In this document: positions 5,686 through 30,246 of the stretch, piece after piece
Position numbering within the stretch: position 1 is the stretch's first letter
Layout of the letters: every line of letters starts with the position of its first letter
DNA from: Candidatus Saccharimonadota bacterium
GTDB taxonomy: Bacteria; Patescibacteriota; Gracilibacteria; BD1-5; UBA6164
Direction: 5' to 3'
Assembly (NCBI GenBank): GCA_004563595.2
Contig: CP042461.1
Coordinates: 960,001-992,000 of the forward strand
Length of the DNA: 32,000 nt
Position numbers and translations under genes: made by a program
The notes under the pieces: model-generated
What the model was told of the DNA's origin: nothing
The model's database searches: none
The model's input: only the letters and a program-made list of their open reading frames with translations

Positions 5686-5783
5686 TGCACCCTCTATAAA
5701 TTCTGTTAGCATAAATCTACACTTAAAAAATTATTTTATATAGAAATTATATCTTGATCGATTGAAAAAGCAAATTAACAACT

Positions 5784-6182
5784 CTATTTGTTTTTTATTA
5801 CCTCTAATTCCCTTTCATCTTCAATATCTGTCTTTTTTAAAATAATTTCTATATCTGGAGTATAATACTTTTCAAGTAATTCTGGCCATTCTATCAAAAT
5901 GACTCATTCATTATTATCTAATATGTCTTCTCATCAAATAGCAAAAAATTCATCATAATTCTGAAGTCTGTACAAGTCAAAATGATATACATCCATATAT
6001 TTATTATAATACGTGTAGGTTGGGGATATTACATCGCCTGTTATTCATAATAGATCATTGATAATATATTTTGAAAGTGTTGTTTTTCATGCTCATAAAT
6101 CTCCTTTTAAAAAGATAATACATGGTTTATTAATAGGGAGTTCAATATCTCTTAAATTATCTAAAGAATACTTCTGTATCAT
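5784..6182 (-). CDS. tsaE: tRNA threonylcarbamoyladenosine (t6A) biosynthesis ATPase TsaE
   Basis: ATG 6182-6180, TAG 5786-5784, 132 aa. IIFLKGDLGAGKTTLSKYII...VISPTYTYYNKY...VYHFDLYRL...GVILIEWPE contains the TsaE/YjeE P-loop, SPT, HFDLYRL and IEWPE blocks. The P-loop Gly residues are TGA, while the Trp in IEWPE is TGG. Confidence 0.85.
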
Positions 6183-6649: not shown

Positions 6650-6686
6650 AAGATATAGATTAAAATCTATATCTTTTTATTTTTTT
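6650..6686. terminator. Bidirectional hairpin terminator between the convergent STAS and GT4 genes
   Basis: Stem AAGATATAGAT (6650-6660) pairs with ATCTATATCTT (6665-6675) across a 4-nt loop. It is flanked by an A-run upstream and a T-run downstream. Confidence 0.6.
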
Positions 6687-7774
6687 CACAATACTCCCTT
6701 CAATTTCTTTTCAAAGTTTTCTAGACTAAAGTTATTTGCTCTTTCCTCACAATCAGATCTCATTTCTAAACACCTCTCTGGACTCATTTCATTCACTGCT
6801 TTTATTATATCAGCAATATTTGCTTCTTTTTCAATTAATATTCAAGTTTTTTTATGAATGATCGATTCTTTCAATCATCAATCATTTACTCAGATTACCG
6901 GTTTTCATGCAGACATTGACTCTACTGGACTCATTCAAAAGTCTTCATCAATTGGTATGTATATCGTAGCAATAGCATTTCCAACATAATCAGGAAATCA
7001 GACATTTCATGGAAGCGTTACAAATTCAATATTGTTTACTCACGCTGAAATTTCAAAAATTTTATTTTTTTGTGGATCATTTTCTCAGTAAATTACAACG
7101 AGTTTTTTCTCTGGTAATTGCTTAAATGCTTTGACGATCTTATCCACTCTTTTTGCATCAGACAACCTTGCAAAACTGAGGTAATATTCTTTTTGTTCCA
7201 AGAACTTAAATTCAGCTCAATTTACAGGTGGGTATAACACAAATGAATCTAGTCATAAAAAATCCTTGATTCTTGCTTTTGTATTTTCTGAATTTGTAAG
7301 AATAATGTCCATTTTTTTGATATCTGATTCGTACATTCTTTTAAAAACATATGATACTATATTAAATATTGGTCTGATATAAAAAGGAATCTTACTTAAA
7401 TATATATTACGTAAATCATAGAGGTATCTTGGTGGAGTATGACAATAATATACTTTTTTAGTATTTTCACCACAGTTCCTGACTGCACTAATACAATCTC
7501 AAGAAAAAATGACCGTTTCATAATCACTCAGAAACTTTGTTTTAAACAAAAATGCTCCCTTCAGTTTAATATGTCTAAATCACTTTGCAAAGATCTCACT
7601 TGAAACTGAAATCATTTTTCAAGTAAAACCTTCTTTTCTTAAATCAAAGCTCCCTTTACTAAAAAAACCTGTTGCAATATCAGCTCCTAGAGCCTTTCAC
7701 ATCATTAAAATAAGCCTTTCCCCCCCTCATTTATAGAGAAAAGTATCATGAAGTATTATTGTTTTATTTTTCAT
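6677..7774 (-). CDS. Glycosyltransferase family 4 (GT-B, glycosyl transferases group 1)
   Basis: ATG 7774-7772, TAA 6679-6677, 365 aa. N-terminus MKNKTIILHDTFLYKGGGERL. The C-terminal domain ...[46 protein letters not shown] carries the E-x7-E glycosyltransferase-1 motif. Confidence 0.8.
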
Positions 7775-7802
7775 ACTTTACAAGGTTAGGTTATTTTTAA
7801 AT

Positions 7803-7873
7803 ATCAAGTCTTCCCTTAATCTAAGGGAAGTGTCTGGAACGAAGTGGAAGACGATGGCTTTTTATTTATCTTC
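7803..7873 (+). repeat. Hairpin repeat copy A (long form, diverged core)
   Basis: ATCAAGTCTTCCCTTAATCTAAGGGAAGT...TTTTTATTTATCTTC. The first 29 nt and last 15 nt are identical to copy C (8332-8398). The roughly 25-nt core has diverged with indels. It contains the hairpin CTTCCC-TTAATCTAA-GGGAAG. Confidence 0.8.
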
Positions 7874-7895
7874 CTTATTAATAGGGACAACATTT

Positions 7896-7943
7896 TAAAA
7901 ACCCATCCCCCTTCGGGTACTTCCCTTAAATTAAGGGAAGACT
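7896..7943 (-). repeat. Hairpin repeat copy B (short form, inverted relative to A, C and E)
   Basis: The plus strand reads TAAAAACCCATCCCCCTTCGGGTACTTCCCTTAAATTAAGGGAAGACT, which is the reverse complement of the A/C/E form. Its outer end overlaps the DUF559 stop codon (7942-7944). Confidence 0.85.
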
Positions 7944-8313
7944 ATACATGAGTTTGTATTCTTTGTAAAACTTTGTTTATATCATTAAAAATCTCTTTAT
8001 TTTGAAATCTTATCACTCTGAGTCATTTGTGCTTTAATAATTCTTCTTTTTCTTTATCTAATAATAAAACTTCCATTATATCATGAATACTTCCATCTAG
8101 CTCTATTATTAAATTTTTACCTGAACAATAAAAATCAGCAATCACAAATCTATTATGACCATTATCCTCAGTATATACAAAAATTGGTTTTTGCCTCATG
8201 AACCTTACTCATATTTGTTTATCCTTAATATGACTCCATAACTCTATTTCTGCTTTAGTCATATTTTTTCTCAAGTTTCTCGCAGCTCACTGTATTATAT
8301 CAGGTATAATCAT
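7942..8313 (-). CDS. DUF559 endonuclease-domain protein (Vsr-like, PD-(D/E)xK fold), 123 aa
   Basis: ATG 8313-8311, TAG 7944-7942. MIIPDIIQGAARNLRKNMTKAEIELWSHIKDKQIGVRFMRQKPIFV...FVIADFYCSGKNLIIELDGSIHD...LLDKEKEELLKHKGLRVIRFQNKEIFNDINKVLQRIQ matches the DUF559 consensus AR.LRKN.T.AE..LW..L.......FRRQ.PI..YI.DF.C...KLIIELDG..H.......D..R...L...G..V.RF.N.EV. Confidence 0.85.
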
Positions 8314-8331
8314 TCTCAAAAGTTAATTTTA

Positions 8332-8398
8332 ATCAAGTCTTCCCTTAATCTAAGGGAAGTACCCGAGGAACGAGGGGGATGGGTTTTTATTTATCTTC
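8332..8398 (+). repeat. Hairpin repeat copy C (long form)
   Basis: ATCAAGTCTTCCCTTAATCTAAGGGAAGTACCCGAGGAACGAGGGGGATGGGTTTTTATTTATCTTC. It forms an inverted pair with copy B across the DUF559 gene. Its right end overlaps the last codons and stop of the truncated mutS (stop 8391-8393). Confidence 0.85.
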
Positions 8399-9803
8399 TA
8401 TCCACCATCTTCCCTTTCAAATTACTCAACAAGTTCAAAGCTTCAACTGGAGTTAAATTATTCACATCAATGTTTTCTAATTCTTCTTCCACTTCAGATT
8501 TTTTTTCTATGTATTGTATTTCAGGTTCTGAAACTCTATTTCACATAGATCATAAACTCATTTGAGATGCCTTAGAATGCTCTTGTTCTAATTGTCTCAG
8601 CATATTTTTCGCTTCAGAAATCACTCATTTTGAAATTCATGCTATACGAGCAACCTCAAGTCAGAATGATTTTTTTATTCCTCAGGGAATAATTTTTCTG
8701 AGAAAAACTAAATTTTCTTCACTTTCTCAGACTGCTACAGAAAAACTTTTCACTCATTTTAATTTTTTTGATTCATCTATCAATTCATGATAATGAGTAG
8801 CAAATAATGTACGAGCCTTGATTTTATCATGATTTTCTTTAAGAATTGCCCAGGCAAGGCTCATCCCATCATACGTTGAGGTTCCCCTTCCAACTTCATC
8901 AATGATAACAAAACTCTTCGAAGTAGAGTTATGCAAAATATTTGCAACCTCTTGCATCTCTACCATAAAAGTGGATTGTCATAAAAAGAGATTATCACTC
9001 GCTCAGACTCTTGAAAAGATCCTATCTGTAAGTGGTATTTTAGCTTTCTCAGCAGGAACAAAGCTTCATATATGTGCGAGTAAAACAATAAGAGCATTTT
9101 GCCTGAGAAAAGTAGATTTTCATCACATGTTTGGTCAGGTAATAATATGAACAAAGTCTTTAGACGTTAAGTTCAGGTCATTACTTATAAAATCTTTCTC
9201 CATCTGCTCAACAACAATATGCCTTCATCAAATTATTTCTAAGTTATCTCACGATATAAGTTCTGGTTTTATATAACTATTTTCATAGGCAACATATGCA
9301 AGATTTGATACAAAATCTATATTGGAAATATTATTTCAAGCTTGTTTAACAGTCTTAAAGTCATTTAATATTTCAGCTCTTAATTCTAAGAATAACTCAT
9401 ATTCTCTCTGAGCTAATGAGCTTTCTGATTCTAGTAATTTATATTCAAACTCTTTCAACTCTTGAGTTACAAAACGAGAAGCATTTACAAGGGATTGTTT
9501 ATGAGTGAAAATATCCGGTACTTTTGAAAGCTGGCTCTTTGGGATTTCAATAAAATACCCTGATGCTCATGTAAACTTTATTTTTAACGTTGAAAGACTG
9601 TACTGTTTAACCAGATCTGCTTGATATCAAGCAAGCCATTGGTTTGAAGTTGCTATTATTTTTCTGTACTGATCAACTTGAGTATCAAATCCATCTGCAA
9701 TAATATTTCCTCACGTTATTGTATTATCCGCATCTTCTTTGAGCGTTTTATCAATCAGATGAATTATATTTTCTATTTGATCCACAAATCTACTGGTTAT
9801 CAT
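8391..9803 (-). CDS. mutS: MutS C-terminal portion only (part of core domain III, clamp IV, ATPase V, HTH), 470 aa. The mismatch-binding and connector domains are absent.
   Basis: ATG 9803-9801 immediately follows an in-frame TAA (9806-9804); TAA stop at 8393-8391; 1413 nt in frame. ...[19 protein letters not shown]...[19 protein letters not shown]...[11 protein letters not shown]...IIGGRHIVVEQ...[73 protein letters not shown]...[23 protein letters not shown]...LFATHYHEL. The alignment to E. coli MutS starts at roughly residue 355, from memory of that sequence. The Walker A codons at 9143-9111 contain three TGA at the invariant Gly positions. Confidence 0.85.
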
Positions 9804-11534: not shown

Positions 11535-11535
11535 A

Positions 11536-11591
11536 GAAGACTTTAAAAACCCATCCCCCTACGGGTACTTCCCTTCTTCGAATGGAAGACT
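11536..11591 (-). repeat. Hairpin repeat copy D (short form, inverted)
   Basis: GAAGACTTTAAAAACCCATCCCCCTACGGGTACTTCCCTTCTTCGAATGGAAGACT. It starts 2 nt after the stop of the 9921..11534 gene. The hairpin loop differs from the other copies (CTTCC-cttcttcgaat-GGAAG). Confidence 0.85.
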
Positions 11592-11598
11592 AGGCAAT

Positions 11599-11631
11599 AA
11601 AAAGCATATATTTAAAAATATATGCTTTTTT
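11599..11631. terminator. Bidirectional intrinsic terminator in the centre of the D/E repeat pair
   Basis: Perfect palindrome AAAAAGCATATATTT-AAA-AATATATGCTTTTT, with an A-run and a T-run on either side. It lies between two convergent genes. Confidence 0.7.
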
Positions 11632-11651: not shown

Positions 11652-11713
11652 AGTCTTCCCTTAATTTAAGGGAAGTACCAGAGGTACGAGGGGGATGGGT
11701 TTTTAAAGTCTTC
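11652..11713 (+). repeat. Hairpin repeat copy E (long form)
   Basis: AGTCTTCCCTTAATTTAAGGGAAGTACCAGAGGTACGAGGGGGATGGGTTTTTAAAGTCTTC. It forms an inverted pair with copy D. It ends 12 nt before the deaD stop codon (11726-11728). Confidence 0.85.
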
Positions 11714-11725
11714 CATAGCTTTTTA

Positions 11726-13447
11726 TTATCTACTTCCACCTCTTGAACCTCATTTATATCATCCACCTGAACTTGAACCTCATCTTGATCATCCTTTATA
11801 TCCTCATCTTGATCATCCTTTATATCCTCATCTTGATCATCCACCATCTCTTTGTTTTGCTTCTACAACAAGTGGTTTTCTTGGGTTTTCTCATTTAAAG
11901 AAAGTAAGAATCTTCTCAGCATCAGCTTCTACTACATTGATAAATGAAAATTCTCTCATGATATCAATACTTCAAATATTCCCAAGCTTTGTATCTACTT
12001 CTCTTTCTAAGAATTGTATAAGTGATCCTGGAGTTAAGTTATCTAGTTTTCACTTTGCAACGAATAATCTTCTTTCTCCATTACTTGATACTCTTGAGCT
12101 TGATACTCATGATTCTTCTTTGATCATATTATAATGAGTTTCACAAAATTCATTATTATATGCTTCTTTAAGAATTGCAGCAAGTACATCAGATGCATCT
12201 CATAATTCTAAGAGTTGAGTTGCAAGCTCTTGATATTGTTCTCATGATTTTGCCTCCATGAACTCTTTTGTATTATCTACCAGTCTTTTTTTCTTAAATT
12301 CAATTACATGTTTCACATCTGGCATTTTCCCAATTTCTAATTTTTGTTTAATAAGTCTTTCGATAAATCCAAGCATTCTTGTATCTTTTCTACTTACAAA
12401 ACTTAAAGCTTCTCATTTATTCCCTGCTCTTCATGTTCTTCAAATTCTATGAGTATATGTTTCTGCGTTATCTGGGAGTGAGTAATTTACTACATGAGTA
12501 AGATTATTTACATCAATTCACCTTGCAGCTACATCAGTTGCAACTAAAATTGAAATTGATTTATTTTTAAATCTTCTGAGTGTCTTTTCTCTTCATGCTT
12601 GTTCAATATCACCATGAATACCTTCAACTTTATATCCCCTACTCATTAATTTTGAAGCTGTATCATCTACGTCAGCTTTTGTTCTACAAAAAATGATTCC
12701 ATAAAAATCAAATTCTACTTCGATTACCCTACATAGAGCTTCAAATTTATCTCTTTCATTTACTTTATAAGCAATTTGTTTTATATTTTTATTTGTTTTT
12801 TCTTCTCTTTTAATAGTAACTGTATCATGATCACTAATATATTTATGAACAATATCTTGAATAGATTTTGGCATAGTTGCAGAAAACAGAAGTACTTTCT
12901 TTTGTTTTGGAGTATGTTGAATAATTTCTTCTATTTCTTCTTTGAAACCAATATTTAACATTTCATCCGCTTCATCTAAGATGAAATAATTTATATGATC
13001 TAAGTCTAAAGTTCTTCTTTTAATAAGATGATCTTTCACTCTCCCTGGAGTTCATACTACTATTTGTGGTCCTCTTTTTAGAGCAGATAATTCTGTTCTA
13101 ATATTTTGTCCTCCATAGAGTAATTGTATTTTTACATCTCTATCAGCAAATGATTGAAGTTCCTCTGCTACTTGAATAGCAAGTTCTCTTGTTGGAGCCA
13201 GAATGATTGCTTGGATATTTTTATTATTCGTATCAAGTCTTTCAAGAACAGGGATTCAAAAAGCAGCTGTTTTCCCAGTACCTGTTTGAGCTTGTCCAAT
13301 AATATCTTTATCTCCATTTAAAAGAAGTGGGATAACTCCTGCTTGAACTGGACTTGGGAATTCATATCATTTTTTCTCAATGATTTTTAACATTTTATCT
13401 GATAGCCCTAAGTCACTAAATTTTACTTTATTTTCCATGTTTTCCAT
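11726..13447 (-). CDS. deaD: DEAD-box ATP-dependent RNA helicase (DeaD/CsdA-like) with a DbpA-type RNA-binding domain and a C-terminal RGG/GYK glycine-rich tail
   Basis: ATG 13447-13445 (alternative ATG at 13438), TAA 11728-11726, 573 aa. Motifs: [52 protein letters not shown]. The DbpA-like domain reads [46 protein letters not shown]. The tail reads RDGGGSRGGYKGGSRGGYKGGSRGGSSSGGGYKGGSRGGSR. Confidence 0.9.
11778..11842 (-). repeat. 24-nt tandem repeat (about 2.7 copies) encoding the GGSRGGYK units of the deaD tail
   Basis: The plus-strand unit CCTCATCTTGATCATCCTTTATAT occurs at 11778-11801, 11802-11825 and 11826-11842 (partial). On the minus strand the sense reading is GGA TGA TCA AGA TGA GGA TAT AAA. 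Confidence 0.85.
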
Positions 13448-17016: not shown

Positions 17017-17892
17017 CTATAAACCTAAAATTATAGAATATCATATTTCATATAACTTGTCGACATTTGTTGGCGCAACTTCTAATATATCATTTATGGC
17101 AGACACATTTTGGAATAAACTTCCAGAGTATGTATTTTGTATATTTATCATAAAAGATTGAATTGCTCCAGTACTCGTGGATAACTCAGATCATGAATAT
17201 AATATGATACTTGATGCTGGGGAATAATTAAATCCTCATAAAATTTTTAATTTTGTTCATTTATATGTTTCTGGAATATTATAATATCAGTTATAAACAA
17301 GTGTTTTATTATTTATAATATTTACCAGATCTTTTTCTGATGTATCTGCATTTATAATGGATGGTATTGCTAACAAGTACGTTACTCATGAAGCGACTAC
17401 TTTTGCAGCTATTCCGTTATAATTTCCTCATACATATGCTGTTGCCAACTGTTGTCATTCAGCGTATACAGATGTTCATAATTGTCATGATATATTATCC
17501 CTTTCATGTGCCGTAGCTACTTGATACTCATTTTTTGTATTCAACCTAGAATAAACGTATTCTAGCTCAGTTAATGGATCAACTGGTATTTCATTAAACT
17601 CCGATAACTGGGATATAATTGAATCTCATAGAGTTCATTGTTGCCATACTTCTGATCAGCTATAAGTAATAGCTATAGGATTTGATGGTTGTGGGTATTT
17701 GGCTTCAGTAGTCATATATACATCTAGTGAAGTCTCAATATTCTTTATATTTGATACTCTGGCTGCATCCCTTACTCATTTTAAGTATGATTGAAATGAA
17801 ACAAATGAAATTAAGCTTAAAATAACTAAAATAATCATAACTATAATTAATTCTACAAATGTGAATCATGAATGTTTTTGATTATATTTCAT
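17017..17892 (-). CDS. Type IV pilin-like protein (prepilin-type N-terminal cleavage/methylation domain), 291 aa
   Basis: ATG 17892-17890, TAG 17019-17017. MKYNQKHSG|FTFVELIIVMIILVILSLISFVSFQSY is the class III signal peptide (G|FT.VEL...). The invariant Gly at -1 is a TGA codon. A large variable C-terminal domain follows. Confidence 0.75.
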
Positions 17893-23436: not shown

Positions 23437-24402
23437 TTATTTCACTTTTCTTTGTAAGAAGTCTTGGATACGTTCAGATATTTCAGCTCATCTTTCTTCG
23501 AGTGCAAAATGTCCTGTATCAAGTAAATGAAGTTCTAAATCTTTCAGGTCTCTTTTATATGGATGTGCTCATTCAGATGGGAATATTTCATCTTTATCAC
23601 CCCATACTATGAGTGTTGCAGGTTGGTGATTTCTAAAATATTCTTGCCACGCTGGGTAGAGAGATGGATTTGATCCATAATCATGAAACATTTTCAATTG
23701 TATTTCTTGATTTCATTTTCTATCAAGTAACATTTGATCTGTATTCCAGGTATCTGGACTGATCTTACTCACATCTTTCACTCAGTTTGTATATTGCCAT
23801 TTTGTTGCTCCTTGCGTAAGAAGAAATTTTAGTGCATCTTCGTTAGCCATATTTGGACTGTTATATGCATTTTTTACATTTATCCACCAAGCATTATCAA
23901 GTCCTTTATTCACAGCACTTGTATCCTTCCAATACTCTTTTATTGGTTCCCAAAAGTTATTATCAAGTCCTTCATCATAAGCATTCCCATTTTGTATGAT
24001 AAGAGATTCTATTTTTTCTGGTGCGTTTGAAGCAACTCTAAACCCTACAGGTGCCCCATAATCCATCACATAGAGAGAATACTTTTTGATTTCTAGTTTT
24101 GCAATAAGTTTTTCTACTATTGCTGCCATATTATCAAATGTATAATCAAATTCGTCCACAGATGGCATAGAAGAATTCCCATACCCAGGATAATCTGGAG
24201 CGATCACATGGTAATTTTTTGCTAAGTCTGGAATGAGATTCCTAAACATATGAGAAGATGTTGGAAAACCATGTAATAATAATACTGTTGGCTTTGTCTT
24301 ATCCCCTGCTTCACGGTAAAAAATATCTAATTCATCTATTACCTGAGTATGATACGAAACTTCTGATTGAACATTGTAGTTCCCTTGGTTATTATTTTTC
24401 AT
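23437..24402 (-). CDS. Alpha/beta-fold hydrolase (epoxide hydrolase / haloalkane dehalogenase-like), 321 aa
   Basis: ATG 24402-24400, TAA 23439-23437. ...[53 protein letters not shown]...[14 protein letters not shown] (HGFP oxyanion block and a nucleophile elbow with Asp)...[12 protein letters not shown]...[11 protein letters not shown] (catalytic His). The first 206 codons form one uninterrupted standard-code ORF in the track. Confidence 0.85.
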
Positions 24403-24413
24403 AATATTTTTAT

Positions 24414-24469
24414 TAATTAATAGTATATATTTATACCGACTGGTCAGTATAAATATATACTATTAATTA
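24414..24469. promoter_or_regulatory. 56-bp near-perfect palindrome upstream of the hydrolase-tetR operon (probable TetR operator overlapping the promoter)
   Basis: TAATTAATAGTATATATTTATAC (24414-24436), a 10-nt centre cgactggtca, then GTATAAATATATACTATTAATTA (24447-24469). The 23-bp arms are perfect, and the centre continues the symmetry with one mismatch (TACcGAC/GTCaGTA). It ends 12 nt from the hydrolase ATG. Confidence 0.65.
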
Positions 24470-29560: not shown

Positions 29561-29866
29561 ATGAAACAAAATGATATAAAAGAGCTTCTCCATGAAGCTG
29601 CAAGTAGTGATTGTACAAGTAAACGTCGCGGAGAGATTTTAGCTGATCTTGTTAATGCGTCAAGCTGGGCAAATGATAATGCTACTGTAATAAGAGACGG
29701 TAGACTAACTGGTATGAAAGTATTACTTGAAGAATCTTACAAGAAGATTATTAATACAAACCCGGCATCTTTGCCTAACTTACTTGTGCCCTACACTATG
29801 ATATGTGGAGATAAACCCAAAGATGGTAAAATCACATCTGAAGTTGACTTTGCGCTCATATGATAG
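29561..29866 (+). CDS. Hypothetical protein with foreign sequence signature (100 aa to the TGA, 101 aa to the TAG)
   Basis: ATG 29561 is preceded by AAGGAG 8 nt upstream, and this is the only clear Shine-Dalgarno sequence I saw in the window. MKQNDIKELLHEAASSDCTSKRRGEILADLVNASSWANDNATVIRDGRLTGMK... There is no internal TGA, and all 5 Gly codons are GGN. It ends ...ATA TGA TAG. It is visibly more GC-rich than its neighbours. No family recognised. Confidence 0.5.
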
Positions 29867-29950
29867 TATTTAAAAAAGGAAGATCAAAAAAAGGATATTA
29901 ACTGTAATTGTTAATATTCCTTTTTTAATTTCCTTTTTTAAATACTATCA
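29861..29950. repeat. Nested inverted repeat / long hairpin covering both convergent 3' ends
   Basis: The outer perfect 21-bp arms are TGATAGTATTTAAAAAAGGAA (29861-29881) and TTCCTTTTTTAAATACTATCA (29930-29950). The inner imperfect hairpin is GGATATTAAC/GTTAATATTCC (29893-29920). The arms contain the TGA-TAG end of ORF 29561 and the ...DSI-TAA end of the dehalogenase remnant. Confidence 0.8.
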
Positions 29951-30246
29951 TACCATCTCGCTAATTCCTCTCCAGTCATGTGTGGGTTATCTTCTTGAAC
30001 GAAATGAAGTCCTTCTCAAATATCTACCATTGTAGTATTTGGAAAATTCTTCTCAATCCAAGAGGCTTCGCTTCTTTTCATAATCATTCATGGATCTGCA
30101 TAAAAACAAATCTTTGGGATTTGAGTTTCTTTTAACCAATTATGATAGTTTTCAACAACATCAAAGATTTCTTAATGTATCCTACTTCCCTTTACTTCTA
30201 AGTACTTTGACTCAAAAGGAAATTTTGATGAAATTTCTTTTGTCAT
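29938..30246 (-). pseudogene. Haloalkane dehalogenase-like alpha/beta hydrolase remnant: N-terminal 24 codons joined in frame, via a TAA, to the C-terminal 77 codons
   Basis: ATG 30246-30244. MTKEISSKFPFESKYLEVKGSRIH, then TAA at 30174-30172, then in the same frame EIFDVVENYHNWLKETQIPKICFYADPGMIMKRSEASWIEKNFPNTTMVDIGEGLHFVQEDNPHMTGEELARWYDSI, then TAA 29940-29938. The ends match dehalogenase termini (PF..KY.EV.G.R.HY ... PKL...A.PG.I.......PN...V.IG.G.HF.QED.P). About 190 central residues, including the nucleophile, are missing. Confidence 0.7.

Follow-up and report, generated by a model that had tools for sequence, protein, structure and literature searches.

Triplex repeats of the BoxC class, for which the names PIT element and TM triplex motif are also in use (PMC4666352), have been known in Escherichia coli since the 1990s and are abundant in hundreds of genomes, and no function is known for them. 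They consist of a pyrimidine arm, a loop, a purine arm, a second loop and an antiparallel third strand of G, A and T (Bergler 1992; Hoyne & Maher 2000; Holder et al. 2015). E. coli K-12 holds 23 copies, which are always intergenic, and five cases of inverted pairs, which always join a type A with a type B unit; BoxC forms a stable triplex in vitro, and remnants of a transposase or integrase were “never found” near it (PMC4666352). Here we analysed a 32,000-nt stretch of contig CP042461.1 (the window) from an AT-rich, UGA-recoded Gracilibacteria genome, in which a small gene of the DUF559 nuclease family stands between two inverted copies of a repeat. This repeat is a long-loop variant of the known class in a new lineage. 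It shares with the class the order of the segments, the dispersed, intergenic and multi-copy habit, the close inverted pairs of two subtypes and the local rearrangement. It differs from it in the second loop, in the host and in the tie to DUF559, as the published work on the class reports no associated gene. In open-access PMC and bioRxiv no description of a coupling between DUF559 and triplex repeats was found, and one may exist elsewhere.

RAYT genes are flanked by REPs and are described as usually single-copy and mostly inherited vertically. Likewise, the DUF559 locus has a nuclease gene between inverted copies of a dispersed, intergenic, structured repeat, gene-less inverted doublets, and a repeat sequence that is specific to the lineage. 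The REP/REPIN-RAYT enzyme, however, is an HUH Y1 transposase (IS200/IS605-like) and not a PD-(D/E)xK Vsr-like protein, the REP is a simple hairpin and not a three-segment triplex motif, and no mobilisation activity is known for the DUF559 system. We give an even chance to the reading that DUF559 and the triplex repeats form one REP/RAYT-like system. Miniature inverted-repeat transposable elements (MITEs; Correia/NEMIS, ERIC/IRU, RUP) are also short, structured intergenic repeats with inverted symmetry, and one doublet of the window is of MITE-like size; typical MITEs are derived from insertion sequences with a DDE transposase and make target-site duplications, whereas neither a parent element nor such a duplication is seen in the window.

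The window contains five copies (A-E) of the repeat, which align as one unit of about 55-63 nt. The gene, the copies and a palindrome between two of them are as follows.

7942-8313, minus strand: DUF559 gene, 123 aa in code 25, with three in-frame UGA codons
7807-7874, plus strand: copy A, triplex unit, finder core 7810-7860
7889-7943, minus strand: copy B, short-loop triplex unit, core 7899-7940, directly downstream of DUF559
8336-8398, plus strand: copy C, long-loop triplex unit, core 8339-8386, its distal end overlapping the mutS stop
11535-11591, minus strand: copy D, short-loop unit, core 11547-11588, one arm of hairpin 1 degenerate
11652-11714, plus strand: copy E, long-loop unit, core 11655-11702
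11599-11631, no strand assigned: AT-rich palindrome AAAAAGCATATATTTAAAAATATATGCTTTTTT, read from the sequence, inside the 60 nt that separate D and E

B and C are inverted repeats with 42-nt arms (86% complementary) and a further 17-nt arm (100% complementary), while A and C are direct repeats of 29 nt (100% identical) and 21 nt (95%) with a diverged core between. The head of B and the DUF559 stop codon TAG (7944-7942) share 2 nt. From the ATG it is 22 nt to the head of C (AGTC) and 18 nt to the boundary drawn for C in an earlier, sequence-only reading of the window. That reading had described copies A to C, the bracketing of the gene by inverted B and C, the diverged direct repeat and the stop codon in B. 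All of these are real, with the boundaries refined here, and it missed the D/E doublet. D and E stand between two convergent genes, D starting 1 nt past the stop of a 537-aa ORF, and form an inverted pair of about 180 bp like B/C with no gene inside; the order and the subtypes (short-loop minus, then long-loop plus) are the same as in B...C. The hairpin pattern occurs five times in the window against 0.02 expected, and the tail motif four times against 0.10 expected. The position of copy C recurs in four other loci of our comparison, which are cited by number (L027, L032, L040, L122).

The sequence-only reading had taken the repeat for a plain hairpin and had not recognised the BoxC/PIT/TM class, and it is the third segment that makes the unit a triplex motif. 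The unit has a pyrimidine arm CTTCCCTTA, a 3-nt loop, a purine arm TAAGGGAAG, a second loop and then GATGGGTT. The Watson-Crick hairpin is CTTCCCTTA with TAAGGGAAG in B, C and E and has 8-9 bp in A and D; the third segment is GATGGGTT(T) in B-E and GATGGCTT in A. Copy A is thus composed of stem A CTTCCCTT, stem B AAGGGAAG, a 22-nt loop 2 TGTCTGGAACGAAGTGGAAGAC and the third strand GATGGCTT, and copy B of CTTCCCTTA, TAAGGGAAG, a 12-nt loop 2 TACCCGAAGGGG and GATGGGTTT; the 18-nt loop 2 of copy C is TACCCGAGGAACGAGGGG. Read along the purine arm in antiparallel sense, the tail sets G against G and either A or T against A, which fits the purine-motif rule for intrastrand triplexes. On this layout the unit is a BoxC/PIT/TM-type intrastrand triplex motif (class II, C-G-G) with a long second loop. 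Loop 1 has 3-5 nt in all copies, and loop 2 has 12 nt in B and D, 18 nt in C and E, and 22 nt in A, which exceeds the definition of the class (1-6 nt in ITxF; 0-10 nt in Hoyne et al.) and could alter the predicted triplex stability. Related units (X-type) of other Gracilibacteria have a loop 2 of 3-5 nt. Both B/C and D/E pair one short-loop with one long-loop unit, which is a parallel to the type A and type B pairs of E. coli.

We searched for such motifs with a triplex finder, which accepted stems of 8-12 nt with a first loop of 3-7 nt and a second of 1-30 nt and tolerated one mismatch in each pairing. It returned exactly the five units A-E in the window and nothing else, and 275 motifs in 77 non-identical DUF559 loci against four in block-shuffled sequence. 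A control with the wrong polarity gave 215 against 275 and was uninformative, many stems being mirror-symmetric and loop 2 flexible, and it was replaced by a non-circular own-stem test. For 503 unique pyrimidine-purine hairpins, 35% had a matching third strand (at least 88%) in their own 3' 40 nt, against 4% on the 5' side, 5% in the 3' region of another hairpin and 10% in parallel polarity. Therefore, the tail co-varies with its own stem and in the correct polarity, for example AAAGGAAG with GATGGATT, AAAGGGAG with GAGGGATT, AAAAGGGGAGA with AGAGGGGAATT and AAAGGGGGG with GGGGGGATT. No Rfam family matched the window or 18 related loci at the gathering score. A sub-threshold match to MIR161 (permissive E-value, 7700-8500) was rejected, as it reflects only the long A/B inverted repeat.

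Loop 2 of the window units holds a mini-hairpin and a conserved GGAACGA core. This core is common to the long-loop units (GAGGAACGAGG; TGGAACGAAGTGG in the A type) of C, E, L008, L014, L021, L052, L043 and L121. It lies outside the three triplex stems and is nevertheless conserved across genomes, so it is a possible site of recognition by a protein.

The units are always intergenic and often stand just past a stop codon, the plus form ends in a T run, and D and E flank the AT-rich palindrome between convergent genes, which looks like a bidirectional terminator. These features would suit ordinary terminators, attenuators or REP-like punctuation whose association with DUF559 is chance or trivial. 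We regard this as very improbable. A consensus terminator scan, which needs three G-C pairs, flagged only one hairpin and none at D/E, the D-E palindrome included, and the folding z-scores are modest. An RNA hairpin leaves the covariation of a non-Watson-Crick third strand unexplained. Besides, neither promoter nor terminator activity was seen for BoxC/PIT in the earlier experiments that PMC4666352 cites, no other function is known there, and the association statistics below exclude chance.

The window is recoded, with UGA as a sense codon: 48 ORFs of 100 aa or longer are read with translation table 25 and 10 with table 11. Its GC content is 28%, and its sequence is identical to contig NODE_17 of ENA ERZ510998. 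The 123-aa ORF is a full-length DUF559 protein by its match to Pfam PF04480 (E=2.2e-25; 89.1 bits against a curated cut-off of 20.6; residues 10-122 covered), and this was the only match in the Pfam scan of the gene, the Vsr family PF03852 not being matched. The product is predicted to be a Vsr-like PD-(D/E)xK nuclease, which would act on the repeats. The catalytic-type residues D60, E71, D73 and H77 are invariant among the 19 relatives compared, and the nearest solved structures are 3HRL (a DUF559 protein of Neisseria) and, weakly, 3R3P, a Vsr-like homing endonuclease (E=0.004). The invariant residues and the structural relatives count toward an active enzyme, and the match to 3R3P bears out the Vsr-like relation that had been proposed from the letters.

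The VSR/DUF559 clade, grouped with 3r3p, includes both repair and homing enzymes (PMC3424549). The I-Bth0305I-type (EDxHD) homing endonucleases (3R3P) belong to the same nuclease clade and have the biology of selfish elements, but they reside in group I introns of phage genes and carry extra DNA-binding domains, whereas the window DUF559 is free-standing, about 120 aa long, chromosomal and flanked by repeats. Vsr shares the fold and the superfamily and nicks at a distorted or mismatched site. It differs in family (PF03852 against PF04480) and in its partner: no DNA cytosine methyltransferase adjoins DUF559 in the window or the relatives, in particular no cytosine-5 enzyme in the window, and the neighbouring methyltransferase of the relatives is Methyltransf_33 and not of the Dcm type. 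No recognisable transposase (DDE, serine, tyrosine or HUH) is present in the cassette, of which DUF559 is the sole ORF.

The gene-repeat association is NEVERTHELESS conserved. Relatives with a DUF559 protein of 63-67% identity keep the flanking units, and the upstream unit head ends 22-25 nt before the ATG. Homologs of 53-61% identity stand in other neighbourhoods (pilus genes, a tRNA-synthetase region, thymidylate kinase) and are again bracketed by units. The stems and tails vary among the DUF559 lineages while the architecture is constant. In a metagenome scan we obtained 80 further DUF559 loci; recoded loci make up about 30 of these, and about 47 belong to bacteria with the standard code (33-63% GC). 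For the loci whose flanks reach 150 nt or more in both directions (25 recoded and 41 standard-code), we counted the units within 150 nt of the gene and read the orientation of the nearest upstream and downstream unit from the asymmetric third strand.

Recoded loci (25): unit within 150 nt in 25, on both sides in 21; upstream 18 minus and 4 plus; downstream 17 plus and 7 minus
Standard-code loci (41): unit within 150 nt in 34, on both sides in 23; upstream 28 plus and 1 minus; downstream 27 minus and 1 plus

Overall, 59 of 66 loci have a nearby unit and 44 of 66 have units on both sides. The positions are stereotyped, at -24 to -49 in the recoded loci. Among the standard-code loci, 12 of 41 have an upstream unit that ends at -38 or -28, and a downstream unit often begins at +3 to +6. 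A unit is present in 78% of the intergenic regions adjacent to DUF559 (90 of 116) and in 14% (17 of 125) of the other intergenic regions within 4-6 kb of the gene at the same loci, a local background (odds ratio 22, p about 9e-25). This comparison replaces a first estimate (26-fold; 7.7 against 0.29 units per kb), which was inflated by a background of mostly coding DNA. A score for aligning the upstream unit with the reverse-complemented downstream unit was also dropped, being partly trivial for a self-complementary hairpin. In a survey of genes altered by inverted repeats, “DUF559 domain-containing protein” was 14-fold enriched (PMC9881135), which we take as independent support for the association. 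The bracketing by inverted copies, which the sequence-only reading described for this one locus, is a conserved property of the family in various contexts and phyla.

Tandem arrays of units were also seen at some DUF559 genes. L034, where the cassette lies among pilus and type II secretion system genes, has three copies of ~77 nt upstream (5700-5950), and L060 has four copies upstream and six downstream.

The DUF559 gene of E. coli, ycjD, has its stop codon within a C-rich/G-rich hairpin, and ~170 nt downstream of the stop stands CCCTCGCCCC-TCT-GGGGAGAGGG-TTA-GGGTGAGGGG, which is a BoxC repeat. This finding was the lead to the triplex identity of the window unit. The pairing at ycjD is partial: one full unit lies downstream, the stop holds a partial hairpin, and the upstream side has no unit; the E. 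coli annotation around the gene lists no repeat features, and the units were read from the sequence. Among 5,426 complete E. coli genomes, ycjD occurs in 3,378 (62%) with a median of one copy, and none of the 5,426 lacks BoxC-like units, which stand at a median of 18 places. The gene is found in the sapF-fabI gap only if the eef operon is missing (PMC12817139). Tentatively, and with odds somewhat short of even, the small stand-alone DUF559 proteins including YcjD may be the cognate nucleases of the BoxC/PIT triplex repeats from Gracilibacteria to Enterobacteria.

A degenerate duplicate of the ycjD 3' end (GAGACGGTGCTGGAGAATATTCGGCAAGGTCTGAACCG) lies between the partial hairpin and the full BoxC in E. 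coli K-12 (L120, 5240-5420, ycjD-fabI). It is another local duplication at a locus with DUF559 and triplex repeats.

The neighbours of DUF559 in the window are a MutS-like gene and a group-1 glycosyltransferase (GT1) gene.

8391-9803, minus strand: MutS-like gene, upstream neighbour, 470 aa, stop codon 8391-8393
6677-7774, minus strand: GT1 gene, downstream neighbour

The MutS-like protein has domains III (partial), IV and V and is without the mismatch-binding N-terminal domains; the short form (461-472 aa) is kept in all syntenic relatives (L026-L032, L122). A functional linkage between DUF559 and MutS was considered and dropped, as the adjacency is confined to the close clade of the window.

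Copy A terminates in GAAGATAAATAAAAA, which in copy C represents the last mutS codons, the stop and an A-run. This shared end shows that A was copied from the unit next to mutS. In the syntenic relative L040 the order is mutS, unit, DUF559, unit and, 20 nt on, the GT1 start codon, with no A copy, so the duplication of A is lineage-specific and secondary. The A/C repeat had been proposed as a duplication made on insertion. A target-site duplication is rejected here, because L040 has the gene and two units without A, and because A carries the copied stop and last codons of mutS. The 22-nt loop 2 of copy A is also found in L043 and L121; its conservation suggests that subtypes of the unit have recombined, rather than that A has simply decayed.

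The MutS-DUF559-GT1 neighbourhood is kept in four further genomes. In the window clade, DUF559 is 65-67% identical and the neighbour genes are 53-76% identical, and this synteny together with the neighbour-like divergence indicates vertical descent. At deeper levels the DUF559 gene has moved: other genomic contexts surround it in L041 (60% identical) and in every more remote homolog. L053 and L054 are homologous only from -113 to +49, that is unit-gene-unit, with unrelated flanks, and similar cassette-bounded homology was found for L087/L114 and L083/L105. The notion of a mobile cassette thus stands in part, namely in the homology that runs from unit to unit within unrelated flanks, and fails for the window clade, where the gene is syntenic and vertically inherited.

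An autonomous selfish cassette would take the unit-DUF559-unit block for a tiny transposon or a free-standing homing-endonuclease gene. DUF559 would cut a target, perhaps an empty doublet, the gene would be copied in, and the units would serve as ends or homology arms. The homology that stops at the units, the differing contexts of homologs of 46-60% identity, the presence/absence polymorphism of ycjD at one E. coli site (PMC12817139), the sequence relationship to I-Bth0305I (3R3P) and the gene-less D/E doublet of identical geometry all agree with it. We still consider it unlikely. The gene is single-copy in spite of many potential targets (a median of one ycjD against 18 BoxC places in E. coli), it is syntenic in the window clade and diverges as its neighbours do, and the A/C repeat is no target-site duplication. 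Moreover, the two ends can differ in subtype, so that they are not the strict terminal inverted repeats of the sequence-only reading. An empty allele at the mutS-GT1 site, which that reading expected to resemble a single A/C copy, was not found, all four syntenic relatives being occupied.

The gap between MutS and GT1 is variable. A Methyltransf_33 gene of about 990 bp lies on either side of an intact block of unit, unit and DUF559 in genomes that are ~93% identical (L027 and L032), with breakpoints where the unit cluster begins and ends. Next to DUF559 proteins of identical sequence, the Methyltransf_33 gene may be present upstream or missing (L122 and L124). A NUDIX gene is also variable in this gap, and the window has neither the Methyltransf_33 nor the NUDIX gene.

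Such instability could mean that the repeats are intrinsically recombinogenic and spread independently of DUF559. DUF559 would then be a structure-specific repair nuclease that processes the repeats, with the flanking units as structure-sensing regulators, or a small passenger gene that was captured and retained in unstable gaps. Triplex motifs are tied to genomic rearrangement and instability and block DNA polymerase in vitro (PMC4666352). The MutS-GT1 gap behaves as an insertion-deletion hotspot in which genes come and go beside an identical DUF559, repeats persist without ycjD, DUF559 belongs to the clade of the Vsr repair nuclease, a Caulobacter DUF559 protein acts in a Vsr-like process, and the window gene adjoins a MutS paralog. 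Passive capture, however, leaves unexplained why distance and orientation are stereotyped on either side of the gene in different phyla, why the homology of the cassettes is bounded by units, and why one gene family has an odds ratio of 22. A guardian or a passenger role is therefore improbable in our view.

We also scanned one genome per species for the unit. Homologous units were found in seven contigs of one Patescibacteria metagenome-assembled genome (MAG), in two Gracilibacteria MAGs and in one MAG labelled Peribacteria. All of the dispersed copies are intergenic and beside unrelated genes, and a DUF559 ORF was found in none of these ten loci. The sequence-only reading had set out that ordinary repeats would occur behind many unrelated genes and that the DUF559 locus of close relatives would be free of them; the former is what we observed, while the DUF559 loci of the relatives do hold repeats. 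MAG CAZFWS01 has three units around DUF559 (L121), in the layout minus unit, gene, plus unit, minus unit as in the window, and a dispersed unit with the same stem and tail on another contig (L017).

A second unit subtype, CCTCCCTT-nnn-AAGGGAGG-TGGCTGAAAGCCG-GAGGGTTTTTT, stands head-to-head with a U-type unit between genes (L008, L011, L014, L019, L021; MAGs JAVHPF01 and JAQVPN01). These are mixed-subtype doublets, like the type A and type B pairs of E. coli. CAZFWS01 also holds a classical short-loop triplex family (TCCCCCTTTAAnAAAGGGGGTTnGGGGGATT), which is like the units flanking standard-code DUF559 genes, so two families of triplex repeats coexist in one genome. In L121, a UPF0102 (YraN family) gene lies directly after the DUF559 cassette (1577-1933), and this family is among the members of the PD-(D/E)xK superfamily (PMC1189080).

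If DUF559 and the triplex repeats do form a REP/RAYT-like system, the nuclease would act on the repeat in its folded state, as a hairpin or triplex that is extruded when the DNA is single-stranded or supercoiled, and its gene would usually be present once and pass on mostly by vertical descent. DUF559 would bind or cut the repeats, and this would drive their spread. Nicking at folded units would lead to recombination or gene conversion, which would copy, homogenise and rearrange the units and now and then relocate a whole unit-gene-unit cassette. Gene-less doublets such as D/E would be the non-autonomous counterparts of B-DUF559-C. The synteny within the clade and the median of one ycjD in E. 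coli would suit a single-copy, largely vertical gene like a RAYT; at deeper levels, the gene relocates.

Several observations weigh against a REP/RAYT-like system. The link between DUF559 and the repeats is one of position only, and the enrichment is relative to neighbouring intergenic DNA. The orientation of the units is strongly biased and this bias is opposite in the recoded and the standard-code groups; seven of the 41 standard-code loci have no nearby unit, and the two flanking units may be of different subtypes (L040). As BoxC is found in every E. coli genome and ycjD in 62%, the repeats persist without the gene in 38% of the genomes. Besides, a nicking-type PD-(D/E)xK enzyme of ~120 aa could not alone perform strand transfer or transposition.

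No role has been assigned to E. coli YcjD, whose nuclease family, DUF559, is very large. The coupling offers a hypothesis testable in E. coli, in which the origin of the repeats and the role of YcjD explain each other. If true, it would be a second REP-RAYT-like partnership, mechanistically unrelated to the first, with a nuclease that recognises a folded three-segment DNA element, and it would extend the REP/RAYT concept to a different enzyme fold and DNA structure. It would also explain how BoxC/PIT repeats arise, stay homogeneous and destabilise their surroundings, and it would mean that reduced, recoded genomes of the Candidate Phyla Radiation carry such nuclease-repeat systems.

What is more, the window contains a few other features. 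A 24-nt tandem repeat CCTCATCTTGATCATCCTTTATAT (11778-11859), with two exact and two degenerate copies, lies in the 3' part of a DEAD-box helicase ORF (11726-13447, minus strand). A near-perfect palindrome (24414-24469; 27-nt arms, 96% complementary, 2-nt spacer) is intergenic and upstream of the minus-strand gene 23437-24402, and an inverted repeat (29859-29952; 32-nt arms, 91% complementary, 30-nt spacer) stands just past an ORF ending at 29866. The minus-strand ORF 17017-17892 has a type IV pilin-like N terminus, GFTFVELIIVMIILVIL.

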